Below are positions 25,456 through 59,480 of a stretch of DNA of 64,000 nucleotides, piece after piece. How positions within the stretch are numbered: position 1 is the first letter of the stretch; each line of letters opens with the position of its first letter. The translations under genes were made by a program, and so were the position numbers. Origin of the DNA: an uncultured delta proteobacterium (GTDB lineage Bacteria > Desulfobacterota > Binatia > UBA9968). A model generated the notes under the pieces. The model made no database searches. It saw only the letters and a program-made list of their open reading frames with translations, and was not told the origin of the DNA. The stretch is from positions 64,001 through 128,000 of the forward strand of contig CAVSHR010000009.1 in NCBI GenBank assembly GCA_963727625.1, in the 5' to 3' direction.

Positions 25456-25462
25456 TGCTTTC

Positions 25463-25969: not shown

Positions 25970-25975
25970 TGTGAT

Positions 25976-26488: not shown

Positions 26489-26507
26489 GCCAGGGCTCCT
26501 AACGGCA

Positions 26508-38127: not shown

Positions 38128-38380
38128 GTCTTTTCCACTTTCAATTTCGACGGTTAGCACGTTCACTAAAATCCGATCAGAAGGCTCCAGCGGGTCATTG
38201 TAACGGTTTTGTAACGCTGGTGCCTGCTCGGGAGGCGAAAATCGACACCTGCTGGGTCAAAAGGCACATCGGTCATTGATAATTGGATTTAACGGTTGTA
38301 ATTCCCCTGACCGTGCGTGTATAAAATTGACCGCGCCAAGGCTCGACGAAGGTTACAAAAGGGTCGTGTTTAAATTTTCG

Positions 38381-38647: not shown

Positions 38648-39270
38648 TAAGTTTTACAAAATTTTCAAGAGAATTGTCGAACAGTGTGGCACTGAAAGCT
38701 GGCTTGACTGGCTTTACAATTATCTCTGTGTGCGTTCCAGCGGCAATTTTACTGACCTTCGGTTTTCAGGAGCGTTACGTACTAACTGGAGTTTTAGCGG
38801 CAATTATCCCTTCTCAATATCTAGCGTTCTGTTTTTTAGAGAGTCTTGGCTACTCCACAACACACACTGTTAAGAAGGTCGAAATTCCTGCACCTCTACA
38901 TGAGAGTCCATTATTGCATGCCAATTGGAAACCCTTAACCGGTCAACTGAATAATTGGACATTCGATTTAGTTATTCAGGTTCAGTTGAGGCAACTAAAG
39001 CAGAAGGAAACCGACCAACTGAGAGAAATATTGATGCAAAAGTGGAAAAAGGACGTGCTTAACCTGACTCCGATATTGCAGAAGCCGTTGTTGGAAATTG
39101 TAGACGATTTCACGAGACCTGAAGAGAAATCAATCCAAACCGTAGAATTTAATGACGTCACTAAAATGTCTGCCGGACTGTCTGTAAGTGAGCTCAACCC
39201 ATTTACATCGTTGGATCCAGTAATTCGACTTCAACGAGCACCGTTTGAGCCGGACAATTCGTTTTCGTAA
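38635..39270 (+). CDS. Hypothetical protein with two N-terminal TMs and a soluble C-terminal domain
   Basis: 211-aa open frame in AT-rich DNA. Confidence 0.65.
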   Translation: MPRLVSFTKFSRELSNSVALKAGLTGFTIISVCVPAAILLTFGFQERYVLTGVLAAIIPSQYLAFCFLESLGYSTTHTVKKVEIPAPLHESPLLHANWKPLTGQLNNWTFDLVIQVQLRQLKQKETDQLREILMQKWKKDVLNLTPILQKPLLEIVDDFTRPEEKSIQTVEFNDVTKMSAGLSVSELNPFTSLDPVIRLQRAPFEPDNSFS

Positions 39271-39316
39271 TTTTTTCCGAATTAGAAAAACGGAGCTTAA
39301 CAGGTAGGCTAAACCG

Positions 39317-40018
39317 ATGGTCAATTTCGGAAAAAATACTTATCAGTACGAAATCGTTTACAAATTCGATTGTCTATCGATAGAATTCGTAAACGAACTT
39401 GCAAGGCATTTTGTTGGACCAAAAAAACGCTTCTCGATGATCTCAAAAGATGCGGGCAACAATCATACGATAATGTCTACAGGAGCCGGAACGGAAGTAT
39501 CTCCCTTGTTTCAACTCAGAATAGGGGCAGATAGACTAATTTTTTGGGGCGGCTGGTTTGTTTCGCTTGATCAATGGCATCAACACGTCAACCAATTTCT
39601 TCCGGAAATATCGCAGTTTGTTCGGAACATTCCAGTTGAATTTATAGGAAACTTGACCAGCCAATGTAATTTCGCAGTACCTTCGTCGCGACTTAGACGT
39701 GCGACAACCGTTCCTGAATTGGAGCCGGTTGTCAATTTCTACCAAAAGTTTGTTCCAAAAGAACTTCTAAAGCGGGGTAATTTAGTTATGGCTTTTGCCG
39801 ATGAGCAAGGTCGAGAAGTCTTGAGTTGGGGGGTTGGAGGCGGGGTGCCAGTTGCAGGCCATGAAAACATTGGGTTTACTTTCCGATGGAACACCTTTGA
39901 AGACCAATTAGATCTGAAGAGTGCTTTATTGTCGCATTTTTCGAGGTATGAACGGTTTCTGGAAGATTTCCAAAGAGGTTTTTTATCCCTGATTGTTGAC
40001 GAACATGTTCATAATTAA
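39317..40018 (+). CDS. Hypothetical protein, possibly TIGR04255-like
   Basis: 233-aa ORF; FQLRIGADRLIF...W...F...I pattern recalls TIGR04255 proteins (by eye only). Confidence 0.65.
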   Translation: MVNFGKNTYQYEIVYKFDCLSIEFVNELARHFVGPKKRFSMISKDAGNNHTIMSTGAGTEVSPLFQLRIGADRLIFWGGWFVSLDQWHQHVNQFLPEISQFVRNIPVEFIGNLTSQCNFAVPSSRLRRATTVPELEPVVNFYQKFVPKELLKRGNLVMAFADEQGREVLSWGVGGGVPVAGHENIGFTFRWNTFEDQLDLKSALLSHFSRYERFLEDFQRGFLSLIVDEHVHN

Positions 40019-40097
40019 TCTCATACACCCACCGTTGAAACCGTTTTTGATTTAAACTGAAGGCCTTTTCTTAACAGCACTAGGCAACAAACCCTCC

Positions 40098-40232
40098 TCA
40101 CCGCCCCATCGGTATCACCTTAGCCTTCTGTGTCTCGAGATACAGTTGCATTTTCTCACTGGCAGCCTTCAGATCGTCTTCACTGACAATGTGATACCGA
40201 TCAAAGACCGACCTTGTCCGATGCCCACTGAG
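40098..40232 (-). pseudogene. Tyrosine integrase C-terminal remnant
   Basis: LSGHRTRSVFDRYHIVSEDDL carries the box II His and catalytic Tyr; truncated at the RAYT element boundary. Confidence 0.8.
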
Positions 40233-40941
40233 AGAGCAGAAAAGGAGAGCAGAAAAGGGGATAAGTCCAATTTTCTCTACCGCTCCTTGCGAGGTCGGCC
40301 CCGCAAGCGCAATGTGGACTTCAATCCTAAACGTTCCGCGATCCATGGTTGCCAACGTTCGTTCCCGAACGGACGACCTCTCTGAGCCGATAACCTGAGC
40401 GTTTCCAATTCTTGATCTTCGGCTGTCTCGTTTACCAAAGTGAGCCAGTCGGCGGGTCTGGGAATCGGCCATTCGGATAACACCAGTCCGGTTGTCTCCG
40501 CAGTTTTAGTAGCCCGCAAACCGAGACTCGACCATCGCCAATCTTCTGCTCGGTCTACTAATTTGGCTCTCAGTGGATTTTGCTCCACGTATCGGCAGAC
40601 CGAAAGAAAATGGTTGTCGTCCTGGACTGGGAAACTCTTATAGGTGCCTTGATAAAGGTGCCCGTTGCCGACACTATGCCGGTTTAAGTGCCAGCGTCGC
40701 ACATGGGTTGTGGTTAGCCGTTGGACAAACCTTCCTAATTCTCCATCTCGCATCGGCCACAGAACCAAGTGCCAGTGATTCGGCATAATGCAATAGGCCA
40801 AAATTCTAACCGATGTTGTTCTTGCTGTCTCAACGAGAATCCGCTCAAAAGCGTTGTAGTCCTGATTCTTTTCAAAGATCTGTGATCGTGCGTTGCCTCG
40901 ATTGAGTACGTGGAAGATGACATCGCCCGGGGCAACCCTAG

Positions 40942-42426
40942 CAGCCCGTGGTAGAAGTCCGATTTTTACAAAACGCATGGGATCGCGGCGAAGCGGTGAC
41001 TTGGGAGCGCAAATAGTCTCAGGTCGAGTCCTCGGCGCCGATGAGCGGTTAGTTGGTCGCGCAGTAGCACCCACAGAGTAAAACAGATAGCCAGTACGGC
41101 GGCAAAACGGCCCTGTAGACCGCGTGGCGTTCCAATTCCCGTCAACGTGCGCATCCACAGGCCCAGATTGCAGGCCGCTACGTGCACGAGTAGCCGTTTG
41201 AGAATATTGCCGTGCCCGCGCAGATGAGTCCGGCGCATGCCGCCGGTCTCGTAGAGATGCGCATTGGGTCGCTCTAACAACTCACCTCGTTGCCGCATCA
41301 ATAGCTGCCCACGCTCGCCTCGAATGCGCCGCCGATTGGCATACACCGCGTCACGCTCAGCCTGCTGACCCTTCCAGTGCTGCCGGCCGCGATCCGGTTC
41401 ACTGATGTAGGTGCGCAGTCCTAGGTTCTGCATATCGAGCACGGTTTGCTTACTGTGATAGCCCTTGTCGGTGACCACTTCCTTGCCTATCTTCACCTTG
41501 TCGTCGATGATCGCAGCCACCGCTTCTAATTGCTCGATTGCCTCAGGCAGCGTCGTCTGGATCGTGGTGGTGTCGCCTTGATCGGCTTCCTGCAGCGTGA
41601 CCGCCACGATGGCACCGGTCTCCAGGTCCACGGCATGCTCGGCTTTGTGCGCTAAATGGGTCCGTCCGTCCTTCATCTTGGCGATCCGTGCGTCGGGGTC
41701 ATGCGGATGTTCCCAGTCCTGGTTAGATCCTTTCTTCTTACGTTTGCGATCCAACTTCGCCAGATCGGCTCGCGTTGGGGTCTCAATGCCGGATTCTTCA
41801 GCCAGCTTGGTCAAAAACTCGTTATAGCTCTCCCCGGTGTCGCGGCGCACGATGCTGCGCAAGGCCGCGTTCGCTTCGAGCGTGGTAGCATCGATCGCCA
41901 GCGTTTTCCCTTTGATGAGTCCGGCGATGCCCAGACACTGAAGTACCCATGTGAACACCGTCCGATGGGTTTCCAAATCGATCAATCGCCGAGTCCGCGA
42001 TATCGTCGAATGATCCGGTGCACACTCGGTCAGCCCCAGCTCAAGGAACGATCGCACTCCCGAGGAGTCCGCCGCGCGCCACGCCATGGCGCGTTCAGAG
42101 TCCAGGCATTCGAAGTAGCCAAGTAATAGAAAACGGAAATATCGTCCAGGCGCCAGACTGGGCCGCCCCATCTTCTCGGCATAGAACGCCCGGCACTGCG
42201 CTTCGACAAACTCGTCGAACCCATGCTTGGCCAATAACCCGTTGAGCTTCTCGTAGAACGGGTGGCTCACAGACTTCGGCAGCTCGCTCACTCCCACCCA
42301 CATCGCTCTCTGCTCTTCGTGTTTTCGTTGTCCCATCGCCATGCAAAAAATTCTACACGATCTATCGTTCCTGTCGACTACTCTCCATCACTCTCCCACT
42401 TCATTCTCGACTTTCACCACGGGCTG
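40942..42426 (-). mobile_element. Complete IS (IS5/IS1182-type, 1485 bp) with CTAG target duplication
   Basis: IRs CAGCCCGTGGTAGAAGTC and CAGCCCGTGGTGAAAGTC (16/18); CTAG at 40938-41 and 42427-30. Confidence 0.92.
40966..42342 (-). CDS. DDE transposase with DUF772-type N-terminus
   Basis: GRPSLAP...SER...PDHSTISR, IDATTLEANA, DPDA, TDKGY. Confidence 0.92.
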   Translation of the reverse strand: MAMGQRKHEEQRAMWVGVSELPKSVSHPFYEKLNGLLAKHGFDEFVEAQCRAFYAEKMGRPSLAPGRYFRFLLLGYFECLDSERAMAWRAADSSGVRSFLELGLTECAPDHSTISRTRRLIDLETHRTVFTWVLQCLGIAGLIKGKTLAIDATTLEANAALRSIVRRDTGESYNEFLTKLAEESGIETPTRADLAKLDRKRKKKGSNQDWEHPHDPDARIAKMKDGRTHLAHKAEHAVDLETGAIVAVTLQEADQGDTTTIQTTLPEAIEQLEAVAAIIDDKVKIGKEVVTDKGYHSKQTVLDMQNLGLRTYISEPDRGRQHWKGQQAERDAVYANRRRIRGERGQLLMRQRGELLERPNAHLYETGGMRRTHLRGHGNILKRLLVHVAACNLGLWMRTLTGIGTPRGLQGRFAAVLAICFTLWVLLRDQLTAHRRRGLDLRLFALPSHRFAAIPCVL

Positions 42427-42618: not shown

Positions 42619-45600
42619 CTAGATTTCTGGATCTCTGGAAACAAACCGACCGTATCTGAGCGCTAAGGTCGGGAGCACCAACAGATTCAGAGCCGTCGAA
42701 GTCACCAATCCGCCAAGAATCACTATCGCCATCGGGCCTTCGATCTCACGGCCAGGGGCGCCGCTGCCGATAGCCAACGGAAGCAAACCCAGGCCGGTAA
42801 CAAGCGCGGTCATGAGAATCGGGGCGAGCCGTTCAGAGGCACCGCGTATGGCTGCATCTATTCCCCAAAGCATTTCCTCGGAGGTGATCAAATGTTCATA
42901 GTGGGAGAGTAGCATGATGGAATTGCGCAGGGTGATACCGAACAGAGTGACGAAGCCGACCATTGATCCGAGCGAGAGTATTCCACCGGAGGCAAATACG
43001 GCCAGCACGCCGCCCAGCAGGGCAAAAGGCAAGTTGATGAGGACCAGGAAGAGATTACGTATATTGCCCACGACAATCGACAACAGCAAAACAATCCCAA
43101 GTCCCGCCAGCAGCGAGTGAACCAACAAATCTCGTCTGGATTGCGCTTGAGCTTCACTTGTACCGGTGAAATCAAGATAAACACCGGGAGGCAAAGAGAC
43201 GGCGGAAAGGATCTGCCGTTTTGCCTGAGCGACAAAGGAACTCACGCTGCGGCCCGCCACATTGCAAGTCACGGTTTGTACTCTTCTGGCCCCCTCGTGT
43301 AGAAGCGCATACCGGCCTGACATTTCATACACGTCGGCCAGCTGTTGCAGGCGCACGTATGTTCCATCGGGGTTGCGAAGCGGCAAAGCCGCCACATCAG
43401 CTATGCTTTTGCGCATCTGTGGATCAAGGATCACCGTTACGTCGGAAACTCGATTCCCTTCGTAGGTTTGACCTACCACATCTCCCTCATAGGCCGCGCG
43501 CACCACTTCGAGGGCATCAACCGGGTCAATACCCCAGCGAGCCAGATCCGCCTTGCGAAGCCGAATTACGAGTTGTGGCGCTCCAGGCGGAGATTGGATC
43601 TGGATGTCGGCGGCCCCTGGTATTTGAGCCAGTAACTTCGCAACGGTCTGAGCCGTGTTGTCTAAAATATCGAGATCATCGCCGAAGATATTAATGACGA
43701 CCGCAGACGTATAACCGGAGAGCGTTTCCTCAACCCGCTCGGTCAAGAAGGTGTTTACGGCAAAGGCCACGCCGACGAACCGCATGAGTATTTTACGGAT
43801 CTCCGACTGCGCCAGCTCGGACTCCCTTTCTCCTCTTAGCGGTTTGAGATCAACCTCAAACTCGCTGTCCTGAGTCCCCAGGATGTCATCGCCTTTTTCC
43901 GCCCTCCCCACGCGCTGGGCAACGGAGCGAACGTAAGGGAGTTTGAGCATTTCACTCGTGAGACGCCGTCCAAGCCGCAGCGATTCCTCCAGCGAGGTGC
44001 CGGGAGCCGCCGACATATGAATAACGAAGTGCCCTTCGTTGAGCTCCGGCAAGAATTCCCCACCGAAGAAGGGAAGCGTTGCCAGTCCTAGGACCGTCAA
44101 AAGCGCTATAATGCCTATTACAAATCGCGACCGACGTTCTATCCGAAGAAGCAGAGCGGAATAGCGCGCTTTCAGCCACCGGACAAGCGGAGGCGCGTCT
44201 TCTTGCATGTTTCGACGACCTAGGACAACAAAGCACAGGGCAGGGGTGACGGTGAGAGCGACGAGCAGAGATGCCAAAATGGCAAAAATGTAGGCAAGGC
44301 CCAATGGGGCAAACAGCCGGCCGGCGAGACCCGACAGGGTTAGGATCGGGATGAAAACCAACACCACCGCAAACGTGGCGTAGACTACTGCGCTGCGCAC
44401 CTCGACCGAAGCGTCAAGAACCACGCGAAAAACCGGTCGCGGAGTCTCCATCTGACGATTCTCACGTAGACGCCTCAGAATATTTTCTACGTCGATGACC
44501 GCATCATCGACCACTTCGCCAATTGCGATGGCCAGCCCGCCGAGAGTCATCGTGTTGAGACTGACACCTAACTGTTGCAGGATCTCTACCGAAGCGAGCA
44601 ATGACAAGGGAATGGCCGTGCAAGAGATGGCCGCCGTGCGGAAGTTGAACAAAAACAGAAACAGGACAATCACGACCAGCAGAGCTCCGATAAGCAAGGA
44701 CGACCGTATATTACTGATGGCAGTGTCGATAAAATTAGCGGGCCGGAACAGGCCCGGATATAACGCAACGTCCTGAGCGATCAGCCCGGCGCGAAGTTCC
44801 TCTAGAGCTTGTTCAACGCGCTCCGATACTTGAAGAGTGTTTGAACCGTACTGCGCTGAAATCATCAGAATGACGCCGGGGCGACCCATAATGGCGGCGG
44901 CGCCGATCGGCGGCGCCGGAGCTTCGACGACCCGGGCGACATCACCCAATGTGATAGCAGCACCGTCGTGATACCCGAGAACCGTGCTTGCGAGCTGATT
45001 TGAGGTGAGCGATTGTCCTTCGCTCCGCAGGACGATGCGCTGGTTCTCGGTATCGATGACGCCTGCCCCCCGAATCCCGGTGGCCTTGCGCGCCGCGCGT
45101 AAGACATCCTCGATCGCGAGGTTGTACTGAATCAGCCGATCCGGTTGCATTTGGATCTGTAGCTGTTTCACGTCGCTGCCGAATACGGCCACTTTAGCGA
45201 CCCCCGGAACGGCTAGAAGGCGCTGCTTCACCGTCCAGTCGGCGAGGCTCCTGAGCTCCATAAGCGAACGTGTTTCGGAGGTCAGGCCTACCGCCAAGAC
45301 CACGCTAGTGGACGACGTTAAGGGCGTCATGACCGGCGCGTCTATCCCTCCCGGTAATTGCCCCGAAACAGAAGCCAAGCGCTCTGCCACCATCTGGCGG
45401 TCAAGATAAATGTCGCTATTCGGACGAAAGGTGACCGTTACGACAGACAGCCCCTGAATCGAGCCGGATCGTAGCGATTCGACCCCCACCACGCCATTGA
45501 CGGCGTTTTCGATCGGTCGAGTAATCAGCACCTCGACCTGCTCGGGTGACAGACCCGGAGCCTCGGTTTGAATCACCGCCTGAGGCGGAGCAAACTCGGG

Positions 45601-45717
45601 GAAGACATCGTAGGTAGCCCGCGAAAGTGTATATAGACCATAGCCCAACCATGCGCATGCCAAGGCCATAACGACACCACGGAAGCGAAGCGAGAAGCGC
45701 ACGATTGCGGCGAGCAC
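42619..45717 (-). CDS. RND efflux permease, CusA/CzcA (heavy-metal) family
   Basis: DVFPEF, GEVVDDAVIDVEN, ERLAPILMT; 1032 aa. Confidence 0.93.
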   Translation of the reverse strand: MLAAIVRFSLRFRGVVMALACAWLGYGLYTLSRATYDVFPEFAPPQAVIQTEAPGLSPEQVEVLITRPIENAVNGVVGVESLRSGSIQGLSVVTVTFRPNSDIYLDRQMVAERLASVSGQLPGGIDAPVMTPLTSSTSVVLAVGLTSETRSLMELRSLADWTVKQRLLAVPGVAKVAVFGSDVKQLQIQMQPDRLIQYNLAIEDVLRAARKATGIRGAGVIDTENQRIVLRSEGQSLTSNQLASTVLGYHDGAAITLGDVARVVEAPAPPIGAAAIMGRPGVILMISAQYGSNTLQVSERVEQALEELRAGLIAQDVALYPGLFRPANFIDTAISNIRSSLLIGALLVVIVLFLFLFNFRTAAISCTAIPLSLLASVEILQQLGVSLNTMTLGGLAIAIGEVVDDAVIDVENILRRLRENRQMETPRPVFRVVLDASVEVRSAVVYATFAVVLVFIPILTLSGLAGRLFAPLGLAYIFAILASLLVALTVTPALCFVVLGRRNMQEDAPPLVRWLKARYSALLLRIERRSRFVIGIIALLTVLGLATLPFFGGEFLPELNEGHFVIHMSAAPGTSLEESLRLGRRLTSEMLKLPYVRSVAQRVGRAEKGDDILGTQDSEFEVDLKPLRGERESELAQSEIRKILMRFVGVAFAVNTFLTERVEETLSGYTSAVVINIFGDDLDILDNTAQTVAKLLAQIPGAADIQIQSPPGAPQLVIRLRKADLARWGIDPVDALEVVRAAYEGDVVGQTYEGNRVSDVTVILDPQMRKSIADVAALPLRNPDGTYVRLQQLADVYEMSGRYALLHEGARRVQTVTCNVAGRSVSSFVAQAKRQILSAVSLPPGVYLDFTGTSEAQAQSRRDLLVHSLLAGLGIVLLLSIVVGNIRNLFLVLINLPFALLGGVLAVFASGGILSLGSMVGFVTLFGITLRNSIMLLSHYEHLITSEEMLWGIDAAIRGASERLAPILMTALVTGLGLLPLAIGSGAPGREIEGPMAIVILGGLVTSTALNLLVLPTLALRYGRFVSRDPEI

Positions 45718-45732
45718 AGCGATTCTTTCCTC

Positions 45733-46779
45733 TCACTCGCCGACATGAATCTGCGATCGCAGTTCTTCCGAGAGAAGTAACTGCGCGCCGGTAGTCACGA
45801 TTTGATCATTAGGGGAGAGATCCGGTTTAACAACCCACCCCTGTTTAACCACAGCCTCGGTTGAAATCTCGCGCCGAACGAATCGGTCGGAGTCTTTCTT
45901 CACATAAACCCACCTCTTTCCCTGCCACCGGACAACGGCTGCGCGAGGCACGATGATGCCGGTCGTCGTCGAGCCGCTCGGCAAATAAGCAAGCACGTTC
46001 ATTCCGGGAAAAAGGCCTGTTGCCCGAGCTGGGGCAATATAGAAAAGGCTCATTCCTTGAATGCGTGGGTCCGTGCTCGGTGCGGGTGAGACTAAGCTAG
46101 CCGATGTAAGGTTTCCCTCTGGGCTCTGGACCCGCACGTTCCGCGGCGTGGAAGAGAGGGCTGAGCCCGGCGGAAGCGTAATCCGCAGTAAGACATCTTG
46201 TCTTTGCATCAAACGTTCAAATTCCTTGGAGTCGTTCAAAAGCCACTGTGCTAGGACGCTGCCCCATCGTTGTCGCACAGTGCTCTCTACGGCATTAAGG
46301 GCAATATCTGCAGCACGCGCGCTTGCGTCATCCGACCGCCAAGCGGCTTCCGCGGACTGGAAAACCTTGACGGAAATATTCCGGTTTTCCTGCAGGGCTT
46401 TTACGCGTTCATATTCTTTGCGCGAAGCCTCAAGCCTTGCTCGTGCCTTTTCCACCTCCGCATGGGCCGCGGCAACGCTGTTGCGAAGATCAACGAGGGG
46501 CTGAAGCTCTATGACCGTTCCGTAGCCTCTGAGCTCTTCCTGATAAGAGACGGCTTTGACTGGAGCGACCTCGATTCCACTCATTTTCTGGGTGGCTCGA
46601 TCTACATTGATGATGCTTTCACCCTTTTCTGTAGATACTCGCGGCGGCGCCTTGACGGGGCGCTCCCGCTCCCGTTCCATAGCCGCCTCTTTACGACTTT
46701 CGACAAAAGCCCAGATCAGAAGCGATCCAATGCCGAGAACAACGATGATCGCCAAAATTATTTTTAGCCTAGGCCTCAT
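45733..46779 (-). CDS. RND periplasmic adaptor (membrane fusion protein)
   Basis: N-terminal TM, coiled coil, VPRAAVV, VTTGAQLLLSEE. Confidence 0.88.
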   Translation of the reverse strand: MRPRLKIILAIIVVLGIGSLLIWAFVESRKEAAMERERERPVKAPPRVSTEKGESIINVDRATQKMSGIEVAPVKAVSYQEELRGYGTVIELQPLVDLRNSVAAAHAEVEKARARLEASRKEYERVKALQENRNISVKVFQSAEAAWRSDDASARAADIALNAVESTVRQRWGSVLAQWLLNDSKEFERLMQRQDVLLRITLPPGSALSSTPRNVRVQSPEGNLTSASLVSPAPSTDPRIQGMSLFYIAPARATGLFPGMNVLAYLPSGSTTTGIIVPRAAVVRWQGKRWVYVKKDSDRFVRREISTEAVVKQGWVVKPDLSPNDQIVTTGAQLLLSEELRSQIHVGE

Positions 46780-48200
46780 TGGTCTTTCCCCTCGCTCGGT
46801 CGAGGATCTTTCTCAATGATATTTGTGACCGCTTGCGTCGGGTTGAGCGGTTGATGCACCGCATCCTCAAGCGAGCCGATGGTCCGCTGAACTATGGTGA
46901 GGGTGTTGAAGCGGGAAAGTTCGGCGGCGGCGACCTCCAGATCAGCGCTGCGCAGGACCAGCCGATCCACTTGCCCGACGTCGAACTGCGCCTGTACGGA
47001 GTGCTGCTGATTTTTACGGGCGTCCACGAGTCGATCGGCCGTTTCCAGAGCTTGCCGTGCCGCGCGGTATCCGGCCAAAGCCCGGTCGATCGCGCCCATC
47101 ACTTGAGCTTGCAAGGCGATAAAGCGGGCTGCTGCTTCGTGGCGGCGCGCTTCCGCCTCCGCAATGGGTCCTTGATTTTGATTGAAGACCGGCAGCGTCA
47201 ACGATACGCCCAGTGACCATTTATTGTCACCTTGATCCCACGAATAACCCGGACCGAGATGAATGTCGGGATATTGTCTGGCTGTCTCCAGCTGTAAAGC
47301 CGATTGCCTGGCAGCGTAATCCGAAAGTGCGCTCAAAATATCAGGTCGGTTAAGTAACGCTCGACGTTGTACTCTTTCGGAAGGAAGGTCCACCGATGTC
47401 CGAGCAAAAAAGCCAAAAGAGAGATCGATTCCGTCAAGCGCGGCCACTGATAATCCGAGTGCATCGGCGAGCCGTACCCGCGCCTCGGCGCTTTGTTTTT
47501 GCGCATCGCGCAGAGAAAGCTGAGTGCGAGCAAGAGCGATACGCTCCTGGGTAAGATCAGGCTGGGATGCTTCGCCAAGCTCAAGCCGCTGTTCGAGAAG
47601 TTTAACAACCTCCTGTTGAACCGTTTCCTGTTTCAATAAAAAGGTTTCAGTCTGACGCGACGCGTAAAGCTCGACTAGGCGCGCTCGCAAACGGCTTCGC
47701 ACTTGCCACGCCACAGTGGAGATATTTAGACGGGCCGCTTCGAAAAGGTGCTTCGCTTGATCGATGCGATATCCTCGCTTACCAGCGGTTTCTATCGGGA
47801 TGTCGAGGGTCGGGGTCACGATCCAAGGCGAAATCCCACCTGTGGCGCTAAAGTTGTATTCGGGGAGGAAGCTAACATTCGGATTGGGATGTTCACCAGC
47901 GGTGATCACGATGGCCTCGGCAATGCCCCACTTGGCACGCACAACGTCCAGGTCCGGATGGTAATAAAATGCCGCGAGCCTGAGCATCTGAAAATCCCAG
48001 ATCTTAGGCGGCCAAGACGCTAATTCATGGCCAAGGTTGGTCCTGAGAAATTCTTTTAAACCCGCGGTATCGAGCGTGCGGGCTTTAAACTCTGCGGCTG
48101 TCTGAGTCGGAGCAAGTGGCCTCGGCCGGAATGTCGCACACCCGTCAAGGAGGGCGGCGATGGTTATAAACGCCAGAGTGCGACTAATCCGCTTCTCCAT
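46776..48200 (-). CDS. TolC-family outer membrane lipoprotein
   Basis: Lipobox LDGC, HPDL/RPDI repeats, first gene of the RND operon. Confidence 0.9.
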   Translation of the reverse strand: MEKRISRTLAFITIAALLDGCATFRPRPLAPTQTAAEFKARTLDTAGLKEFLRTNLGHELASWPPKIWDFQMLRLAAFYYHPDLDVVRAKWGIAEAIVITAGEHPNPNVSFLPEYNFSATGGISPWIVTPTLDIPIETAGKRGYRIDQAKHLFEAARLNISTVAWQVRSRLRARLVELYASRQTETFLLKQETVQQEVVKLLEQRLELGEASQPDLTQERIALARTQLSLRDAQKQSAEARVRLADALGLSVAALDGIDLSFGFFARTSVDLPSERVQRRALLNRPDILSALSDYAARQSALQLETARQYPDIHLGPGYSWDQGDNKWSLGVSLTLPVFNQNQGPIAEAEARRHEAAARFIALQAQVMGAIDRALAGYRAARQALETADRLVDARKNQQHSVQAQFDVGQVDRLVLRSADLEVAAAELSRFNTLTIVQRTIGSLEDAVHQPLNPTQAVTNIIEKDPRPSEGKDQ

Positions 48201-48498
48201 GAATATAAAACCTCCTCCAATATCCCCAACACTGAGCTAGGGACTCAGCTGTGCATTGCCACTGGTTGAGGGTCTCGCTGTGCATTAGAATTCCTTCGGG
48301 TTTTTAAACAAACTGATTGCTGTCCAAGCGAATTTTGGTGAGCAATAAGAATAGCCAAGGCTGAAAAATAGTCTAATCCCTGGAAACATCAATTCAATCG
48401 CAATATTAACGACTCATCTCGCCATTGCATCGCTTCGGCCCAGACATTTGCCGGAACGTCCCGTTAGGCGATAGTTTTTACTTTTCTGAGTACGTGCC

Positions 48499-48530
48499 TT
48501 GACTCTGTACCTAGGTACGGAGTGTACATT
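48499..48530 (+). promoter_or_regulatory. MerR-type promoter/operator
   Basis: TTGACT-N20-TACATT with the near-perfect dyad ACTCTGTACCT|AGGTACGGAGT (48502-23) in the long spacer, like the GTAC-N4-GTAC mer operator. Confidence 0.88.
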
Positions 48531-48550
48531 ACCTTTTAGAGGGCAATGAA

Positions 48551-49027
48551 ATGCATGGCTTGACCATAGGGCAGCTCGCCAAAGAGAGCAACGTGCACGT
48601 TGAAACGATCCGTTATTACGAGCGCCGAGGATTAATTTCCAAGCCGCCGCGATCGGTCTCAAATTACAGGATGTATTCCTCCGAGAATCTACGCCGCTTA
48701 AAATTTATCAAGCATGCACAGGGACTCGGCTTCTCCCTAAAAGAAATTAAGGAGATTCTGTCTTTGCGTGCAATCCCGCGCGCTAGGTGTGCCGATGTTC
48801 AAAAATACACGACTCGCAAAATCGAAGAACTTCAAGAGAGAATTCATTCGCTAACACGCATGCGCAGAAGCCTAGAAAAGCTCCTGCGTGAGTGCTCCGG
48901 AGACCTGCCGGCGACAGAGTGTCCGATACTTGAGTCGATGGAATCTGAAAACCGAAAAAACCGATCAATTAAATTCAAACGAAAAGGAGCGGTTTATGAG
49001 CAAAAAAAGGGAAATCGAAATTTATAG
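48551..49027 (+). CDS. merR: MerR-family metal-responsive regulator with three conserved Cys
   Basis: VETIRYYERRGL HTH; RCADV, ECSG, ECPIL; the C-terminal extension may reflect an indel in the A-run near 48955. Confidence 0.88.
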   Translation: MHGLTIGQLAKESNVHVETIRYYERRGLISKPPRSVSNYRMYSSENLRRLKFIKHAQGLGFSLKEIKEILSLRAIPRARCADVQKYTTRKIEELQERIHSLTRMRRSLEKLLRECSGDLPATECPILESMESENRKNRSIKFKRKGAVYEQKKGNRNL

Positions 49028-49265
49028 TGCGGGCTGCCCGGCATGTGAGGACGCGATCAAACTGGTAAACGGCATCGCCTGTGACTCTTGCGAGGTCACG
49101 GTACTCGATATGCAGGATCGGGCGGTAGCCCAGAGAGCGAAGACTCTTGGGATCCAAAGCATACCGGCAGTCGTGATCGATGGAAAGCTCGCCGCCTGCT
49201 GCAAAGGACGCGGTATCAGTGAATCCGCGCTGCGCAGCGAGGGGATCGGTCAACCGTTGCCTTAG
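48996..49265 (+). CDS. Small thioredoxin/glutaredoxin-like protein (CPAC plus CC)
   Basis: AAGGAG RBS; EIYSAGCPAC, IPAVVIDGKLAACC. Confidence 0.85.
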   Translation: MSKKREIEIYSAGCPACEDAIKLVNGIACDSCEVTVLDMQDRAVAQRAKTLGIQSIPAVVIDGKLAACCKGRGISESALRSEGIGQPLP

Positions 49266-49278
49266 CATCTAGAAATTT

Positions 49279-49623
49279 ATGCAATTTGAAACCGTTAAGG
49301 CCGGTGTTATAGGCATGTCGGCCGCCATCGTGGCGTCTCTTTGTTGTCTATTGCCTTTGATTGTTGTGCTCCTGGGTTTTGGAAGCGGCGCTTTCATGAT
49401 GGTGACCATGCAATACCGCGCGTTATTCCTGCCCATGGGCGTGCTCGGCGTGTCGTTGGGTTATTATTTGTATTTTCAGAAAAGACGCCGATGTGCCAGC
49501 GCCGGCTGCACCTTCGTGGGCGGGACATTCAATTTGGTTCTTCTTTCCTTGGCCACAGTCATGGTCGCGCTGGCGCTTGGATTAGATTTTTTTCGCAATT
49601 ATCGTCTGAGATGTTGCAGATGA
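49279..49623 (+). CDS. merT: MerT-like membrane metal transporter
   Basis: ASLCCLLP in TM1, three TMs, CASAGC in the cytoplasmic loop; 3' end possibly shifted at a T7 run. Confidence 0.78.
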   Translation: MQFETVKAGVIGMSAAIVASLCCLLPLIVVLLGFGSGAFMMVTMQYRALFLPMGVLGVSLGYYLYFQKRRRCASAGCTFVGGTFNLVLLSLATVMVALALGLDFFRNYRLRCCR

Positions 49624-49648
49624 TCATGTAGGCCGGGAGGTCCTCGTT

Positions 49649-49972
49649 ATGAAAGAAAAGCGTATCCTGATCCGTCTTTTTCTTGTTCTTCTCCCTCTTT
49701 GTTGGCTAACCGTCTTTTCGCTGTACACTGAGCCGCTGCATGGGGCTGAACTTAATCAAGTCAACCTACAAATCGAAGGAATGACCTGAGGGGCATGTCC
49801 CGTCACCGTGCGGGCAGCCCTGGAAGGGCTAAAGGGAGTGAAAAAGGCACAAGTGAGTTTCGCCGAAAAAACCGCCACTGTTACCTATGATCCTCAGGCG
49901 ATTGATATCCCGGCAATGGTTCAGGCCGTGAAGAGGGCCGGATTTTTCGCGCGCACGAGCGCGACGAAATGA
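49649..49972 (+). CDS. merP: MerP/HMA-domain exported metal-binding protein with in-frame TGA (candidate selenocysteine, GMT-U-GACP), 107 aa
   Basis: GGGAGG RBS, signal-peptide-like N-terminus, QVNLQIEGMT*GACPVTVRAALEGLKGVKKAQVSFAEKTATVTYDP...VKRAGF; TGA at 49787-89 is codon 47; hairpins follow. Confidence 0.85.
49790..49830 (+). promoter_or_regulatory. Candidate bacterial SECIS element
   Basis: Two alternative folds right after the TGA: GGGC..CCCG/CGGG..GCCC (49791-820) and AGCCCT-GGA-AGGGCT (49816-30). Confidence 0.55.
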
Positions 49973-50002
49973 CTCCTGAAAACGGATCCAGAGGAGGGAT
50001 AT

Positions 50003-50338
50003 ATGAATGACGATCACGGGTCCCGGCAAGGGAACAAGTGTTTTAAGACAGGCGTGTTCGGGACAATTATCGCAGCCATTTGTTGCGCCACCCCTGTCCT
50101 GGCGGTTGCGTTGGCTTCTATAGGCTTGGCGGTCATAGTGCCGAAACTTGATTACGTTCTCCTTCCTGCGCTGCTGATTTTCCTGCTTCTGGCTCTTTAC
50201 GGATTGCGAAAGGGAAGACATGACGGAGACCACCCGAAATGGAGATTGAATCCCCGAACTGTTGTTCAACAGCCGGTCCCGAAACGGTCGAGGACCATTG
50301 CCCGCGTTGTGCCGGCAAAGGAAAGACCGTTTCGCTGA
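50003..50338 (+). CDS. merF: MerF-like mercury transporter
   Basis: GTIIAAICCATPVL...LDYVLLPAL; the true stop may be near 50223 if there is an indel. Confidence 0.82.
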   Translation: MNDDHGSRQGNKCFKTGVFGTIIAAICCATPVLAVALASIGLAVIVPKLDYVLLPALLIFLLLALYGLRKGRHDGDHPKWRLNPRTVVQQPVPKRSRTIARVVPAKERPFR

Positions 50339-50703
50339 TAACTGTTGGGTCAATGGCGAAAACTTCGGTAGAGGCCTGCAAACTCGCCCGGTCATCATAC
50401 CAGCTCTGCCACAATCCCGATTGCTCGGTCGTGTATTTTGCCCCTGGAATTACAATACAAAAAACAGAGCTTCGGGTTCCCGTCAACTTCAAGGAAAAAA
50501 ACTACGACGGCCCTGTCTGTTATTGTTTCAATCACACCGTGGCGAGCATCAGAGCGGAAATTCAATCCACCGGTCGTTCCACAGTCCAAACGGCGATCAC
50601 CAAGGAAATACAAGCGGGGCGTTGCGCCTGCGAGGTCAAGAACCCGGCTGGCTCATGTTGCTTGGGGGATATCACACGGGCTGTGCGAGCTGTGGTTGTT
50701 TAG
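50239..50703 (+). CDS. Cys-rich CopZ-N-terminal-like (Zn/2Fe-2S) metallochaperone
   Basis: CPRC, CHNPDCSVVYF, CYCF, CACEVKNPAGSCCLG. Confidence 0.82.
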   Translation: MEIESPNCCSTAGPETVEDHCPRCAGKGKTVSLITVGSMAKTSVEACKLARSSYQLCHNPDCSVVYFAPGITIQKTELRVPVNFKEKNYDGPVCYCFNHTVASIRAEIQSTGRSTVQTAITKEIQAGRCACEVKNPAGSCCLGDITRAVRAVVV

Positions 50704-50862
50704 TATGCGGAGACTCGTCTGGGGTACGCGTTGAACGACGGTGATAGTCGTCTTCAACCTGTTGATAGGTTAGAAACAATGCTATCCGATTGGAGTGTTT
50801 GACTCTCACATTTTCACAATTAAGAAAAAATTATCCAAGAATTCTAAATATTTAGTATTACG

Positions 50863-50926
50863 CGCGCCGGACTCAAAATCCGGTAGGGGAAATCCTGTGC
50901 GGGTTCAAGTCCCGCCTCCGGCACCA
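50863..50926 (+). repeat. attR-like 64-bp duplication of the tRNA-Leu 3' part
   Basis: 63/64 identical to 37407-37470 (AACCCT vs AATCCT). Confidence 0.95.
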
Positions 50927-51024
50927 ATCTTCGCTCTATCCGCTGCAAATCCGCCCGTCCACCCGGGACCTATTCAAAAAGTGCCGTTCGCTGCTATATT
51001 GAGATCCAATCCAGGAGGACGACG

Positions 51025-52146
51025 ATGGCAAAAAACGGTTTTAAGATCCTCGATAGCGATATGCACATCATGGAACCGCCGGATCTCTGGGAGCGCTACA
51101 TCGATCGGAAATTCAAAGCGCGCGCGCCGCGCGGGGTGACCAGCAGTAACGTGCGCGACCTCCGCATGGTCTATCCGGACGGCCGGGATTGGGCGCGCAC
51201 CACGACCCGGAAAAATGATTCGGCGCGCGGCCACAACTTCGAACGCAACCAGAGCGTTTATCGCGCCGACGCCGAGCGCGGCTGGACGCCGCAAATTCAG
51301 CTGGAAGCTATGGACATCGAGGGCATCGATGTCGCCGTGCTCTATCCGACGCGCGGCCTGCGCGCGCTCGTCGTCGAGGACATGGATGCGGAGTTCGCCG
51401 CCGCACTGGCGCGAGCTTACAACGATTGGCTCCATGATTTTTGCAAATTGGCGCCCAATCGTCTGATCGGCTCCGGGATGATTTCGCCTTACGACATGAA
51501 TGATGCAATCTCGGAAGCGCGCCGTTGTGCCGAGCAACTCGGTTTTCGCGCGGTATTTCTTCGCGCCAATCCCTTGGTTAACCATCAGTGGCATGACGAC
51601 TACTACACGCCGCTGTGGAACGCTTTGGAGGGGTTAAATCTCGCCCTGGGATTTCACGAATCCACCGGCACCGGCAAGCGGCAGATCGGCGAGCGGCTGG
51701 AACCGAATCTGATGCTGCGCCGAGTCTATGCGCAACCGATGGAGCAAATGTTGGCGCTCGGCAGTTTTTGCGCCGGCGGCGTGCTGGCGCGTCACCCGCG
51801 GCTGCGGGTAGCTTTCTTGGAAGCCAACTGCAGCTGGCTACCGTGGTTGCTATGGCGCTTGGATGAGGGCTGGGAACGCGAAGGGGATGTTTGGGCCCCT
51901 GACTTAAAAGCAGCGCCGAGCGAATATTTTAAACGGCAGTGCGTGGTGTCCGTGGAGCCGGACGAGACCACGGTCAAACAAGCGATCGATTATCTTGGCG
52001 GCAGAGGCATTGTGTTTTCCACCGACTATCCGCATGGCGATTCGAAATATCCGGAAGCGGTGAATCATTTTTTGAAACTGCCGATCACCGAGTCTGACAA
52101 ACGGAAGATCCTCTGGGACAATTGCGCGGCCTATTACGCAATGTAA
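51025..52146 (+). CDS. Amidohydrolase_2 family protein
   Basis: DSDMHIMEP, GIDVAVLYPT, FHE, FSTDYPHGD. Confidence 0.92.
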   Translation: MAKNGFKILDSDMHIMEPPDLWERYIDRKFKARAPRGVTSSNVRDLRMVYPDGRDWARTTTRKNDSARGHNFERNQSVYRADAERGWTPQIQLEAMDIEGIDVAVLYPTRGLRALVVEDMDAEFAAALARAYNDWLHDFCKLAPNRLIGSGMISPYDMNDAISEARRCAEQLGFRAVFLRANPLVNHQWHDDYYTPLWNALEGLNLALGFHESTGTGKRQIGERLEPNLMLRRVYAQPMEQMLALGSFCAGGVLARHPRLRVAFLEANCSWLPWLLWRLDEGWEREGDVWAPDLKAAPSEYFKRQCVVSVEPDETTVKQAIDYLGGRGIVFSTDYPHGDSKYPEAVNHFLKLPITESDKRKILWDNCAAYYAM

Positions 52147-56417: not shown

Positions 56418-57071
56418 CTAATGAGTGGTGATGCCGGTAATCTTGATGCTGCCGTGTTTGGACTTGTACTTGCGGTTGAGGGAAATGATGACGCCGGTAA
56501 GTCCTTCGATGACATAGGCGTTGCTGGCAGGCCCAGCGTCATAAGCCGTGGCGCCGATGCGCTGAATAATCTCCATCACTTTCTGCTTGGCTTCGGCGTT
56601 ATCGCCGCAAACCAGCACGTCGCCGAGCGGCGCATCGACGTCGCCCAAATCAACGGCAGAGATATTATGCAGCGCGCCGATCACCGGAGCTTCGTCGCCG
56701 ATGATCTGCTGCGCCTCCTGTAGTGCGGAGCCCGCCGCCGGCACGAACGGCTTTACTTTATTGAGCGGCACCACCGTGTTGATGACGATTTTACCCGCCA
56801 GTTGGCCTTTGAGATCGGTTACCATTGGCGCGTGACCTTCGTACGGCACTGCGATTACCACGAAATCGGCGTCCTTGACCGCCTCTCGATTGGTCCTGCC
56901 GATCATTTCGCCGAAGCGCAGTTTGGGCTGCAAGGTTGCGACGGCGTTCTTGGCCTTCTCCGCGTCACGTGAGCCGATGATAATTTTTACTCCAGGGGCG
57001 CTGAGCCTGAGCGCCAAGGCGCTGCCTAAATTGCCCGTGCCGCCGACGATCGCTACACTGAAATTTTCCAT
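56418..57071 (-). CDS. npdG: NADPH-dependent F420 reductase
   Basis: GGTGNLG, IGSR, VPYEGH, DVLVCGD; located in the cof operon. Confidence 0.9.
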   Translation of the reverse strand: MENFSVAIVGGTGNLGSALALRLSAPGVKIIIGSRDAEKAKNAVATLQPKLRFGEMIGRTNREAVKDADFVVIAVPYEGHAPMVTDLKGQLAGKIVINTVVPLNKVKPFVPAAGSALQEAQQIIGDEAPVIGALHNISAVDLGDVDAPLGDVLVCGDNAEAKQKVMEIIQRIGATAYDAGPASNAYVIEGLTGVIISLNRKYKSKHGSIKITGITTH

Positions 57072-57087
57072 ATTTTTTTATCCGGTG

Positions 57088-57840
57088 CTAACGAAAAAGA
57101 TCCTCTGTCTCGGGACGCAGGAGCTCTTTCACCGAACCTTCCTCCTTTTTGTCAATTTCATAGCCGCGCACGACGACGACTGGAACACCGTCGCGTTTAC
57201 CCATGACCAATTCCGCCGCAGCGGCAATTTCATCGGCGATCGCCGCTACCGCAGCCTTGAGTCGATAGCCGTAACGGTCGTTCAATCCTCTTTCGTCTTT
57301 GATCGCACCCATACCGGCAATGCCGACGGCGACGTCCACCGTGCCAAGACGCCAAGTCCGGCCGAAGCTGTCGCTGATAATCACAGCGGGTGATTTACCA
57401 GTGCAATTGGCGATGGTATCGCGAATCGCGCGCGCCGAACCATCCGGGTCGATCGGCAGCAAAGCGACTCGGCGCAACCCAATGTTGGATTGATCCACGC
57501 CGGCATTGGCGCAGACAAATCCATGGTGCGTTTCGACGATCAGAGCCCGGCCGCCGGTGCGAATCACTCTACGGCTTTCGCCGAGGATGACCTCGACCAG
57601 TTCCGGCTCTTTATCCAACTGTTCGGCCAACTCACGCGCCCGCTCCGACGGCGTTACGTCATCGAGACAGACCATACGTCCTTCGCTTTTGGAAACAATT
57701 TTCTGGGCGACCACTAAAACATCATCGTCGGCCAGCGCAAGCTCCTGGCGCGCGCAGGCGTCGCAGATCAGCGCGCCGATGGAATCACCGGCGTTGATTT
57801 CACCGATGCCTTCCACGCCGATCAACTCAAGCCGCTTCAT
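57088..57840 (-). CDS. cofE: Coenzyme F420-0:L-glutamate ligase
   Basis: QKIVSKSEGR, CANAGVDQSN, SDSFGRTWR, ADEIAAAA. Confidence 0.95.
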   Translation of the reverse strand: MKRLELIGVEGIGEINAGDSIGALICDACARQELALADDDVLVVAQKIVSKSEGRMVCLDDVTPSERARELAEQLDKEPELVEVILGESRRVIRTGGRALIVETHHGFVCANAGVDQSNIGLRRVALLPIDPDGSARAIRDTIANCTGKSPAVIISDSFGRTWRLGTVDVAVGIAGMGAIKDERGLNDRYGYRLKAAVAAIADEIAAAAELVMGKRDGVPVVVVRGYEIDKKEEGSVKELLRPETEDLFR

Positions 57841-58526
57841 AGGCTCTCGGAGCGCCTATGGCCTCGCGCCACTTGTTCCGCCATCAACCGCCGCGCCACC
57901 CGCGTCGCTTCGCCATCGGCGAGATCATAGGTCAAAAACCGTTCGAGATCTTTCGGTTCGTCTATATCGAGCGCGATATGCTCGTTCTCGAAGCAACGGA
58001 CCGGCAATCCCTGGGCGCGCACCTGAGCCAGGTGAAAATTGAAACTGTCGTGGCCGAAGCGCAGCTCAATGATGTCCGGCGGCGCCAGCAGCAGCGCATT
58101 GGTACCCAAGCGGTCATGGGACGGCACGAGCATAGCAAAGGGCGCCGATGCATCATCGGGAACTTGCGCCATAACCACTTCCAGATCTGCGGCACGCACC
58201 AACGGCATGTCGCCGGGGATGATCATTACGCCCTCGCACCCCGCCCGCTTCAATTCCAAACGGGCGAAATCCACCGCGCCGGTCTCGCCGGTTTCCGCGC
58301 TCTCCCGAATCACTTCAGCGCCGGCGGTTAAAGCCATGCTGGCGACCTTGTCGTCGCCGGTCACAACGAAAGTTGCGGCGATGCCCCGCACCATCCTTGC
58401 CTGGGTCAAAACATCGTGGAACATCGCTTTAGCCAAAAGTTCGCGCGCGGCGCAGCTCAGGATCGGGCTCAAGCGCTGCTTCGCGTTGCGGAAGCCTTTA
58501 ACGGGAATCAATGCGACAACATTCAT
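57837..58526 (-). CDS. cofC: 2-phospho-L-lactate/PEP guanylyltransferase
   Basis: IPVKGFRNAKQRLS, PGDMP, GTNALL, DIDEPKDL. Confidence 0.93.
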   Translation of the reverse strand: MNVVALIPVKGFRNAKQRLSPILSCAARELLAKAMFHDVLTQARMVRGIAATFVVTGDDKVASMALTAGAEVIRESAETGETGAVDFARLELKRAGCEGVMIIPGDMPLVRAADLEVVMAQVPDDASAPFAMLVPSHDRLGTNALLLAPPDIIELRFGHDSFNFHLAQVRAQGLPVRCFENEHIALDIDEPKDLERFLTYDLADGEATRVARRLMAEQVARGHRRSESL

Positions 58527-58553
58527 GGGCAGTCCGAAAACAGATTCTCTAGA

Positions 58554-59480
58554 CTATTTTTCGCCTGCGGCCAAGACCTGCCGCGCCAAGCGCTGTTTGT
58601 CGACGCCGGTCGGCATGCGAATACCCGTGCAAACCGGGTTGATTTTCAGATCTCTGATCTGCGGCGCCGACTCGGCGTCTTCATCCGCGATCAGCAGCGT
58701 ATCGAGAAAATCGCCGTAACCTCGCGCCACGCCCAGCGCCGAAGCTTCGAAGCCGCACGCGATCATCAATTTGTGCGCCGGGCCGGAGATCGCCGCCGTC
58801 CCGATAATCGGGCTTACTCCGACCACTGGTACACTCGCTTCCTGCAACGCCGCCCGGATTCCCGGCACCGCGAGAATCGGGCCGATGCTGGTGATCGGAT
58901 TGCTCGGGCAAATGATAATTGCGTCGGCGCGCTGGATCGCCTCGAGGACGCCCGGGCCGGGCCGGCTTTGCTCAGCGCCGAGAAATCGAACCGCCTGCAC
59001 CTCCGGCGACCAGCGCTGTTTGACAAAGAACTCTTGAAAGGAAATTTCTCCTTGCGGCGTCTCGACGCTGGTTTCGACTCGCTCATCCGACATCGGCAAA
59101 ATTTGCGACCGGACGGCGAGTGCGCGGCGAATCTGTTCGCTGATTTCGGAAAGCTTTCGGCCTTCTTTCAACAAGCGGGTTCGAGTGATATGCGTCGCCA
59201 GATCTTTGTCACCGAGATTAAACCACGGATCGTCACCCAAGAGACGCAGTTGCTCCAACACCGCGAAGGTATCGCCCTTGATTCCCCATCCTTTTTCGGT
59301 ATCGCTCAGGCCGGCGAGTGTGTACGTAATCGTGTCGATGTCGGGTGAAATATGCAGGCCGTGAAAGACGCAATCGTCGCCGGTGTTGCAGACAATCATC
59401 AACTCCGACGGATCGACGACCGCGGCGAGCCCTTCGACCAGCTTGGCGCCGCCGGTGCCGCCGGTGAGCGCGACGATCAT
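58554..59480 (-). CDS. cofD: 2-phospho-L-lactate transferase
   Basis: GGTGGAKL, NTGDD, SPDIDT, WFNLGDKDLATH, PSNPITSIGPIL; TGATG overlap with cofG. Confidence 0.96.
   Translation of the reverse strand: MIVALTGGTGGAKLVEGLAAVVDPSELMIVCNTGDDCVFHGLHISPDIDTITYTLAGLSDTEKGWGIKGDTFAVLEQLRLLGDDPWFNLGDKDLATHITRTRLLKEGRKLSEISEQIRRALAVRSQILPMSDERVETSVETPQGEISFQEFFVKQRWSPEVQAVRFLGAEQSRPGPGVLEAIQRADAIIICPSNPITSIGPILAVPGIRAALQEASVPVVGVSPIIGTAAISGPAHKLMIACGFEASALGVARGYGDFLDTLLIADEDAESAPQIRDLKINPVCTGIRMPTGVDKQRLARQVLAAGEK

Follow-up and report, generated by a model that had tools for sequence, protein, structure and literature searches.

A merA-less mer-like operon with a predicted selenocysteine MerP and a CopZ-N-like iron-sulfur protein at the end of a tRNA-Leu island in a Binatia genome

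What use might a bacterium have for a set of mercury-type importers when no mercuric reductase is encoded beside them? The question is raised by a six-gene operon on the forward strand (48551-50703) of a 64-kb stretch of DNA, positions 64,001 to 128,000 of contig CAVSHR010000009.1 from an uncultured bacterium of the Binatia, which we refer to at its full length as the window. Tentatively, and as a possibility that we prefer without regarding it as settled, we read this operon as an intact, horizontally acquired, MerR-controlled module for the capture, import and hand-off of a thiophilic divalent metal, most likely Hg(II), that operates without a reductase of its own. The genes are co-directional, form a single operon and have intact reading frames throughout; in order, they encode a MerR regulator, a thioredoxin (Trx)-like protein, a MerT-like protein, a MerP-like protein with a predicted selenocysteine (Sec), MerF, and a protein resembling the N-terminal domain of CopZ (CopZ-N-like; its family is called CopZN below).

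Upstream of these genes lies a MerR-type promoter/operator (48499-48530, forward strand), in which a −35 element, TTGACT (48499-48504), and a −10-like element, TACATT (48525-48530), are separated by 20 nt. An inverted-repeat finder delimits the operator palindrome in this spacer as 22 bp (48502-48523), with 11-nt arms that are complementary at 10 of 11 positions (91%), so that a dyad lies between −35 and −10 elements whose distance agrees with the 19-20 nt of mer promoters. A sigma-70 scan with spacers of 16-18 nt finds no promoter at 48499-48530, which is what one would expect of a MerR-type promoter with an over-long spacer; related Trx/MerR and MerR/CopZN clusters are preceded by comparable promoters with a dyad in the spacer. 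The first gene (48551-49027, forward strand), which overlaps the Trx-like gene by 32 nt, encodes a 158-aa MerR-family metal sensor with three cysteines, Cys80, Cys115 and Cys124, which its aligned relatives share. Among NCBIfam models it matches MerR best (TIGR02051, 142.2 bits, cut-off 150.85), with lower scores against CueR (128.7), ZntR (125) and CadR/PbrR (112). The closest annotated relative, 52.6% identical, is named merR and lies on a Candidatus Manganitrophus plasmid, divergent from an adjoining merA. On that plasmid (locus L041) the merR gene diverges from a merA-arsR pair and has behind it a P-type ATPase, probably a pseudogene since its matches lie in two different reading frames; the plasmid's table lists no gene there.

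No merA or merB was found in the window by a Pfam scan of 58 open reading frames (ORFs) of at least 90 aa, which gave no Pyr_redox or MerA match, and a tblastn search of the 64 kb with three MerA or MerA-like queries returned nothing at E ≤ 1e-10. The label of merA-less mer-like operon given in a preliminary description of this locus holds, and each element named there—operator, three-Cys MerR, transporters, binding protein and soluble proteins—is present where that description placed it.

Is the missing reductase peculiar to this locus? We aligned 23 relatives of the CopZ-N-like protein and, with this alignment, retrieved 28 loci from species-representative genomes. True MerA occurs in the sampled DNA at five of them (L004, L014, L017, L026 and L027): the enzymes of L004, L017 and L026 pass TIGR02053, and those of L014 and L027, respectively 74% and 67% identical to these three, end in a Cys pair. 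MerA lies directly downstream of CopZN in L014, L017, L026 and L027, while L004, a Binatia metagenome-assembled genome (MAG) whose CopZN is 61% identical to that of the window, has the order merA-arsR-merT-merP(Sec)-merF-copZN; where it carries merA plus arsR, the window carries MerR plus Trx. Near CopZN in five loci from Acidobacteriota and Myxococcota stands a 450-aa flavoprotein disulfide reductase with the active site CALRGC, directly downstream in L008, L011 and L018 and 1.2-2.5 kb away in L009 and L016. These enzymes were considered as MerA and rejected: with 278-304 bits against a cut-off of 454 and no C-terminal Cys pair, they are better described as glutathione-reductase (GR)-like. 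In L007 the FAD oxidoreductase that lies 3 kb from CopZN is unrelated, and 17 of the 28 loci have neither MerA nor a similar reductase, eight of them (L012, L015, L019, L020 and L022-L025) with 10 kb of sequence on both sides.

The transporters give a similar picture. A MerT or MerF gene stands beside CopZN in 10 of these loci, one with MerA (L004), one with the GR-like enzyme (L009) and eight with neither; among the eight, one flank is short in L001, L003 and L005, and L015, L020, L023 and L025 extend for 10 kb both ways. The order MerT-MerP-MerF-CopZN recurs in L001, L004 and L009, and in L002 too if its MerT is read through a TGA codon, and MerF and CopZN are adjacent in L003, L005 and a plasmid of Stanieria PCC 7437. 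That plasmid, with the order Trx-MerR-MerF-CopZN-methyltransferase, is one of 13 complete-plasmid loci that we drew from seven of 34 CopZN matches and seven of 29 Trx-like matches, one locus being shared. None of the 13 has an annotated merA in the flanks examined; a Bacillus cereus plasmid has a dihydrolipoamide-dehydrogenase-like gene whose product is 31% identical to MerA. On two Burkholderia plasmids (L030 and L032) a small 'GDCCVxC (seleno)protein' comes after Trx-MerR-MerT-MerP, and bare MerR-CopZN pairs occur on two Deinococcus plasmids and one Stenotrophomonas plasmid. The operons of L030 and L032 come directly after a cluster of genes for a sigma factor, NrsF, DUF2282, DUF692 and DoxX, which resembles the gold-induced gig genes of Cupriavidus.

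Since the merA-less design is seen in other loci and on plasmids, the lack of merA is, as far as sequence comparison can tell, not a truncation at the edge of this island but a feature of a recurrent design. Among the circumstances that, by the preliminary description, would refute its reading is that homologous operons normally include merA; with true MerA at five of 28 genome loci and annotated merA at none of 13 plasmid loci, they do not. For the module in general that description stands in part: the merA-less order recurs, but MerA is still strongly associated with the CopZN family, near which it is found far more often than chance would give, and this ties the family to mercury. Because L004 carries merA together with the same module, the module is a mer accessory kit and not a proven replacement for MerA.

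At the 3′ end of the operon, the genes for MerF and the CopZ-N-like protein meet. MerF (50003-50338, forward strand) is a two-helix importer with a CC pair in helix 1 that passes the equivalog model NF033565 (79.4 bits, cut-off 50) and matches PF11431 (39.8 bits); canonical MerF has a C-terminal Cys pair, which the window protein lacks. The 3′ end of its gene overlaps the CopZ-N-like gene by 100 nt (50239-50338) in another frame, an overlap shared by L001, and MerF ends about 35 codons earlier in L002, L003 and L005. That the two might be a single frameshifted gene was considered and set aside, as homologues begin at the same Met and no slippery site is evident. The last gene (50239-50703, forward strand) encodes a 154-aa protein with 13 Cys, a predicted Zn/[2Fe-2S] protein that passes both NF047645, 'putative iron-sulfur cluster-binding metallochaperone' (117.8 bits, cut-off 100), and PF18423 (60.9 bits, cut-off 28.4), and that has 245 relatives in a database search. 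Residues 17-141 match the profile of Protein Data Bank entry 2HU9 (E 3.6e-15), with CxxC, CxxxxC, CxC, C and CC aligned; this archaeal CopZ N-terminal domain reportedly binds Zn and a [2Fe-2S] cluster and reduces Cu(II). Ahead of the domain is a tail with a CC pair at residues 8-9, the second Cys of which is conserved in at least 90% of the 23 aligned relatives, and a sister NCBIfam model has Cys-Sec at the place of this pair. An AlphaFold2 (AF2) model of the protein, moderate in quality, has a mean predicted local distance difference test score (pLDDT) of 63.5, with the Fe-S half below 50 and residues 1-16, the CC pair among them, disordered at a pLDDT below 50.

Among 110 candidates for longer, fused forms of the CopZ-N-like protein, one such protein emerged: in P0242 (309 aa), CopZN is followed by a MerF-like helix pair that is 52% identical over 31 residues to helix 1 of the window MerF. 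In locus L003 (948-1634), MerF and CopZN share a frame and are parted only by Cys-TGA, possibly coding for a fused selenoprotein, in the reverse order to P0242, in which Cys-Sec replaces the usual CC of the family. This natural fusion and this shared frame suggest a physical link, and the CopZ-N-like Fe-S protein most likely docks on MerF.

The other soluble protein of the operon, an 89-aa Trx-like protein (48996-49265, forward strand), has a thioredoxin fold by its match to PF13192 (33.8 bits, cut-off 24.8) and carries the motifs CPAC, CDSC and a vicinal CC, six Cys that are invariant in an alignment of 24 sequences. A database search returned 644 relatives, the top 120 at 63-100% identity and nearly all 86-90 aa long. 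The best solved relative is 2K8S (E 3e-6); an NCBIfam search found no specific curated model that covers the protein, and a protein atlas search led only to generic thioredoxin-fold clusters. A MerR-family regulator adjoins its gene in six of the seven plasmid loci sampled for it, and tblastn with the Trx-like protein found no match in the 28 CopZN-anchored genome loci, of which the close relatives L001, L002 and L004, together with L027, have ArsR instead. Seven pairs of Trx-like and CopZN matches come from the same source and a contig of the same size, which suggests that the window-type operon recurs in metagenomes.

Between the Trx-like protein and MerF are encoded a second membrane protein and a periplasmic one. 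The MerT-like protein (49279-49623, forward strand) has three helices, with a CC pair in helix 1, a loop with C-x4-C and a C-terminal CC; it scores below the cut-offs of both Pfam PF02411 (21.9 against 32.9) and NCBIfam NF010314 (35.6 against 150), and L001 and L004 have orthologues of 62-64% identity at the corresponding position. In its counterpart in L002 (3154-3714), Cys-TGA (Cys-Sec) replaces the CC of helix 1, and a C-terminal CusF copper/silver-binding domain (PF11604, 68 bits) is present as well. The MerP-like protein (49649-49972, forward strand) begins with a hydrophobic leader and carries an HMA domain (E 3.8e-16) that continues across an in-frame TGA (49787-49789); this codon takes the place of the first Cys codon of GMTCxxC, giving GMT-U-GAC. 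Its score is 71.2 bits against TIGR02052 (cut-off 92.55) and, with U read as C, 94 against NF041115, the UxxU metal-binding selenoprotein (cut-off 95).

When the HMA motif was scanned in the window and the 28 related loci, TGA was found at the first HMA Cys codon in the window, L001 (U-GA-U), L002 (U-SD-C) and L004 (U-GAC), the selenium motif being UxxC in the window MerP and UxxU in L001. The codon is thus kept in four of four close-relative loci with a MerP gene, followed each time by conserved HMA sequence, and more distant MerP homologues have Cys at this position. This pattern—a conserved in-frame UGA at a Cys position and a conserved protein downstream—supports the prediction that MerP contains selenocysteine. 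A candidate selenocysteine insertion sequence (SECIS) hairpin (49790-49821, forward strand), taken from the minimum-free-energy fold, starts directly after the UGA, as hairpins also do in L001, L002 and L004, with stems that differ in sequence; an Rfam scan of 48000-51200 for SECIS at E ≤ 10 returned no family. PMC9312934 lists selenium-containing versions of MerT, HMA-bearing ATPases and a 'putative mercuric reductase', and selenoprotein MerT and HMA-bearing forms are mentioned in a preprint (10.1101/2022.07.06.499078). Given these published forms and a score of 94 against 95 for NF041115, the Sec-MerP of the window belongs to a known kind or stands close to it.

An island of about 13.5 kb carries the operon as its last cargo. 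At the left end is the integration site, a tRNA-Leu(CAA) gene (37385-37470, forward strand; ARAGORN), and at the right end a 64-nt direct repeat of its 3′ end (50863-50926), 63 of 64 nt identical to 37407-37470 and beginning 160 nt after the last operon gene; a tRNA-integrated island has just such a repeat at its far boundary. GC content inside the island is 0.42-0.53, against 0.55-0.62 in most flanking 1-kb bins. Family searches found no integrase in the island. They found instead transposase genes and fragments in its left part (37471-42342)—an insertion sequence (IS) 630 transposase fragment, an IS200-like/REP-associated tyrosine transposase and an overlapping IS1182/IS5-like transposase—along with three low-GC ORFs (38276-40018) that match nothing in Pfam or NCBIfam. 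Divergent from the mer-like operon runs a resistance-nodulation-division (RND) metal efflux operon (42619-48200, reverse strand) for an outer-membrane factor, an adaptor and a CusA/CzcA-type pump; the pump matches PF00873 (804 bits) and scores 689.5 against TIGR00914 CusA/CzcA (cut-off 701), and OEP and RND_mfp are matched as well. Between the two operons, at 48313-48349, lies an inverted repeat with 15-nt arms, 80% complementary and 7 nt apart, possibly a site from which the efflux genes are regulated.

How might these parts work together? Our proposal builds on the genes, their motifs and family matches, the conserved TGA, the recurrence without merA and the CopZN-MerF fusion; from these we infer which metal is handled, in which direction and order it is passed on and where it ends up. 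Metal bound to the three-Cys MerR would remodel the long-spacer promoter at 48499-48530 and switch on the regulator's own six-gene operon. In the periplasm, secreted MerP, with selenocysteine as the first metal ligand, would scavenge the metal, which the MerT-like protein and MerF would then relay inward through their vicinal Cys pairs. On the cytoplasmic side of the membrane, the CopZ-N-like protein, in contact with MerF, might take the metal over with its flexible N-terminal CC tail, and the six-Cys Trx-fold protein could serve as a second thiol acceptor or re-reduce ligands. Held on dedicated thiolates, the metal would be kept from essential proteins; an unlinked MerA or low-molecular-weight thiols might form an onward sink; its final fate could be sequestration, unlinked MerA or Fe-S-driven reduction. 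For import followed by storage there is an engineered parallel in strains that combine MerT/P with a cytoplasmic metallothionein and accumulate Hg, as PMC6215804 describes.

Several points weigh against this reading of an import-and-hand-off module, beyond those on the metal given below. The candidate SECIS folds no better than shuffled sequences (z = −0.7), consensus folding of three orthologous regions yields no compensatory change in any of 19 predicted pairs, and selA, selB, selD and tRNA-Sec are all absent from the 64-kb window. We found no published experiment on a protein of the CopZ_Nterm_CC or Trx-like families. Importers without a reductase sensitise cells, and since true MerA adjoins CopZN in five of 28 loci, L004 included, the module may just serve a MerA encoded elsewhere. 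Taken further, the operon would be the half of an ordinary mer system that sees to transport and chaperoning, as an accessory cassette or a remnant whose MerA lies elsewhere in the genome or was lost in rearrangement of the island; its chemistry would then be canonical. Such an origin, which we judge rather unlikely, would account for merA within the operon of L004, for MerA directly downstream of CopZN in four other loci, for the exchange of MerR plus Trx for the merA plus arsR of L004, and for an island that holds IS630, IS1182/IS5 and IS200-like transposase genes or fragments without an integrase. It fits less well with six intact frames, a conserved TGA and a right end that is a clean 64-nt att repeat, and with the recurrence of the design, which lacks a MerA-like gene in eight of ten transporter loci and annotated merA in all 13 plasmid loci.

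Nor is it given that the metal is mercury. The curated equivalog cut-offs are missed by MerR, MerT and MerP alike. In L002 a CusF (Cu/Ag) domain forms part of the MerT-like protein, Cu-type P1B ATPases lie near L001, L002 and L023, and CopZN stands beside CadC/ArsR-regulated ATPases on Enterococcus and Bacillus plasmids. All of this would suit a system for a different soft metal, Cu(I)/Ag(I)/Au or Cd/Pb/Zn, whose mer names express mere family resemblance, as would the identity of 2HU9 as a copper chaperone domain, the name of copper chaperone that annotation pipelines give the family, and the CusA/CzcA-type pump that is the operon's divergent neighbour. The regulator, however, matches MerR best, and its closest annotated relative adjoins merA; it keeps Cys80, the first Cys that CueR-type sensors of monovalent metals lack, and its Cys115-Cys124 spacing of nine residues is that of MerR. 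MerF passes its equivalog cut-off, and true MerA accompanies the CopZN family in the five loci already named. A very similar dyad with a GTAC core precedes the Stenotrophomonas MerR-CopZN pair, whose regulator is annotated as Hg(II)-responsive. From these sequence features Hg(II) is probably the metal of the window operon, and a different soft metal is unlikely; the suggestion of one in the preliminary description finds some support in relatives of the operon, in the CusF domain of L002 and the nearby Cu-type ATPases, but loses weight through the three-Cys, MerR-best regulator of the window itself. If the metal is Hg(II), the [2Fe-2S] cluster of the CopZ-N-like protein could conceivably reduce it on the CC tail in two one-electron steps, a role that we think improbable; it is likewise improbable that the Trx-like protein would then resolve the thiol ligands and Hg(0) leave the cell. 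The archaeal homologue is reportedly a Zn/[2Fe-2S] protein that reduces Cu(II), MerR-CopZN units of two genes exist without transporter or reductase, and the GR-like flavoenzyme near CopZN in five of 28 loci could supply reductant. MerA-independent reduction of Hg(II) is credited to low-potential ferredoxins in PMC8261052. Set against such chemistry are the Fe-S half of the protein, which folds at low confidence in the AF2 model, and an operon that gives no evidence of an electron donor; moreover, where true MerA occurs, the CopZN family coexists with it and does not replace it. We have equally little expectation of a complete MerA-independent Hg detoxification, in which Sec-MerP and two importers would feed a MerF-docked CopZ-N-like protein acting as a new mercuric reductase by ferredoxin-like one-electron chemistry, with the Trx-fold protein recycling the ligands.

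Outside the island, the chromosomal context is ordinary (5416-10994, 16478-26894 and 56418-60742). The window includes a heat-shock cluster in which three HSP20 genes accompany DnaJ, a small MerR_2 regulator and GroES/GroEL; a nuo operon with an intact nuoD (24316-25455); and F420 biosynthesis genes for CofC, CofD and a CofE-like protein.

Every component of the module belongs to an already curated family, and Sec-for-Cys replacement at heavy-metal ligands is already known; the design of the operon, by contrast, appears undescribed. Our literature search found neither a recurrent operon of importers and an Fe-S chaperone without MerA, with or without the Trx-like protein, nor its link to MerF, and no paper that treats the CopZ_Nterm_CC or Trx-like families in a mer context. 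PMC3466566 records ArsR- or MerR-led, co-directional mer operons as known. Surveys of Hg resistance (PMC3466566, PMC8261052) take MerA as their starting point, and operons of importers plus chaperone that have no MerA therefore go uncounted. The design is recurrent and mobile, found on islands and plasmids from Binatia-like MAGs, cyanobacteria, Burkholderia, Deinococcus and Stenotrophomonas, and the operon joins two uncharacterised families of proteins, both of which conserve vicinal Cys pairs. Should it protect cells without MerA, it would represent a second natural strategy against mercury-type metals, give functions to both families (644 Trx-fold and 245 CopZN database relatives) and provide a natural import-and-hold cassette for bioremediation. 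Sec-MerP and the Cys-Sec MerT of L002 would extend the cases in which selenium replaces sulfur at a heavy-metal ligand.

Among known systems, the classical mer operon with MerF (merR-merT-merP-merF-merA-merD) shares with the window a three-Cys sensor of the MerR type, an operator dyad in an over-long spacer, a periplasmic HMA protein, and MerT/MerF importers with vicinal Cys pairs. The window operon differs in having no merA, merB or merD, in a regulator that is the co-directional first gene, in Sec-MerP, in two extra cytoplasmic Cys-rich proteins, and in MerR, MerT and MerP scores that fall below the cut-offs. Its last protein resembles the N-terminal domain of Archaeoglobus fulgidus CopZ (2HU9) in the aligned Cys and the extent of the profile match, but is a standalone protein without a fused HMA domain, has an N-terminal CC tail and an extra Cys (CAC), and follows MerF in a MerR operon. 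Of the curated models nearest to these proteins, NF047645 (CopZ_Nterm_CC) is passed by the last protein and NF041115 is nearly reached by the MerP-like one; these two, like NF045877 (CopZ_Nterm_CU) and NF045683 (MerT/CopZ fusion-like selenoprotein), are single-protein models in which, as far as we can tell, the operon is not described. The lead-resistance operon pbr of Cupriavidus metallidurans likewise combines a three-Cys sensor of the MerR family with an uptake protein and a Cys-rich cytoplasmic metal-binding protein, but it also has its own efflux ATPase and phosphatase, and its proteins are of other families. The engineered Hg accumulators with MerT/MerP and metallothionein (PMC6215804) come close in principle, with mer import into a cytoplasmic Cys-rich sink and no reduction; in the window, however, the pairing is natural, and the sink would be an Fe-S/Zn protein together with a Trx-fold protein.

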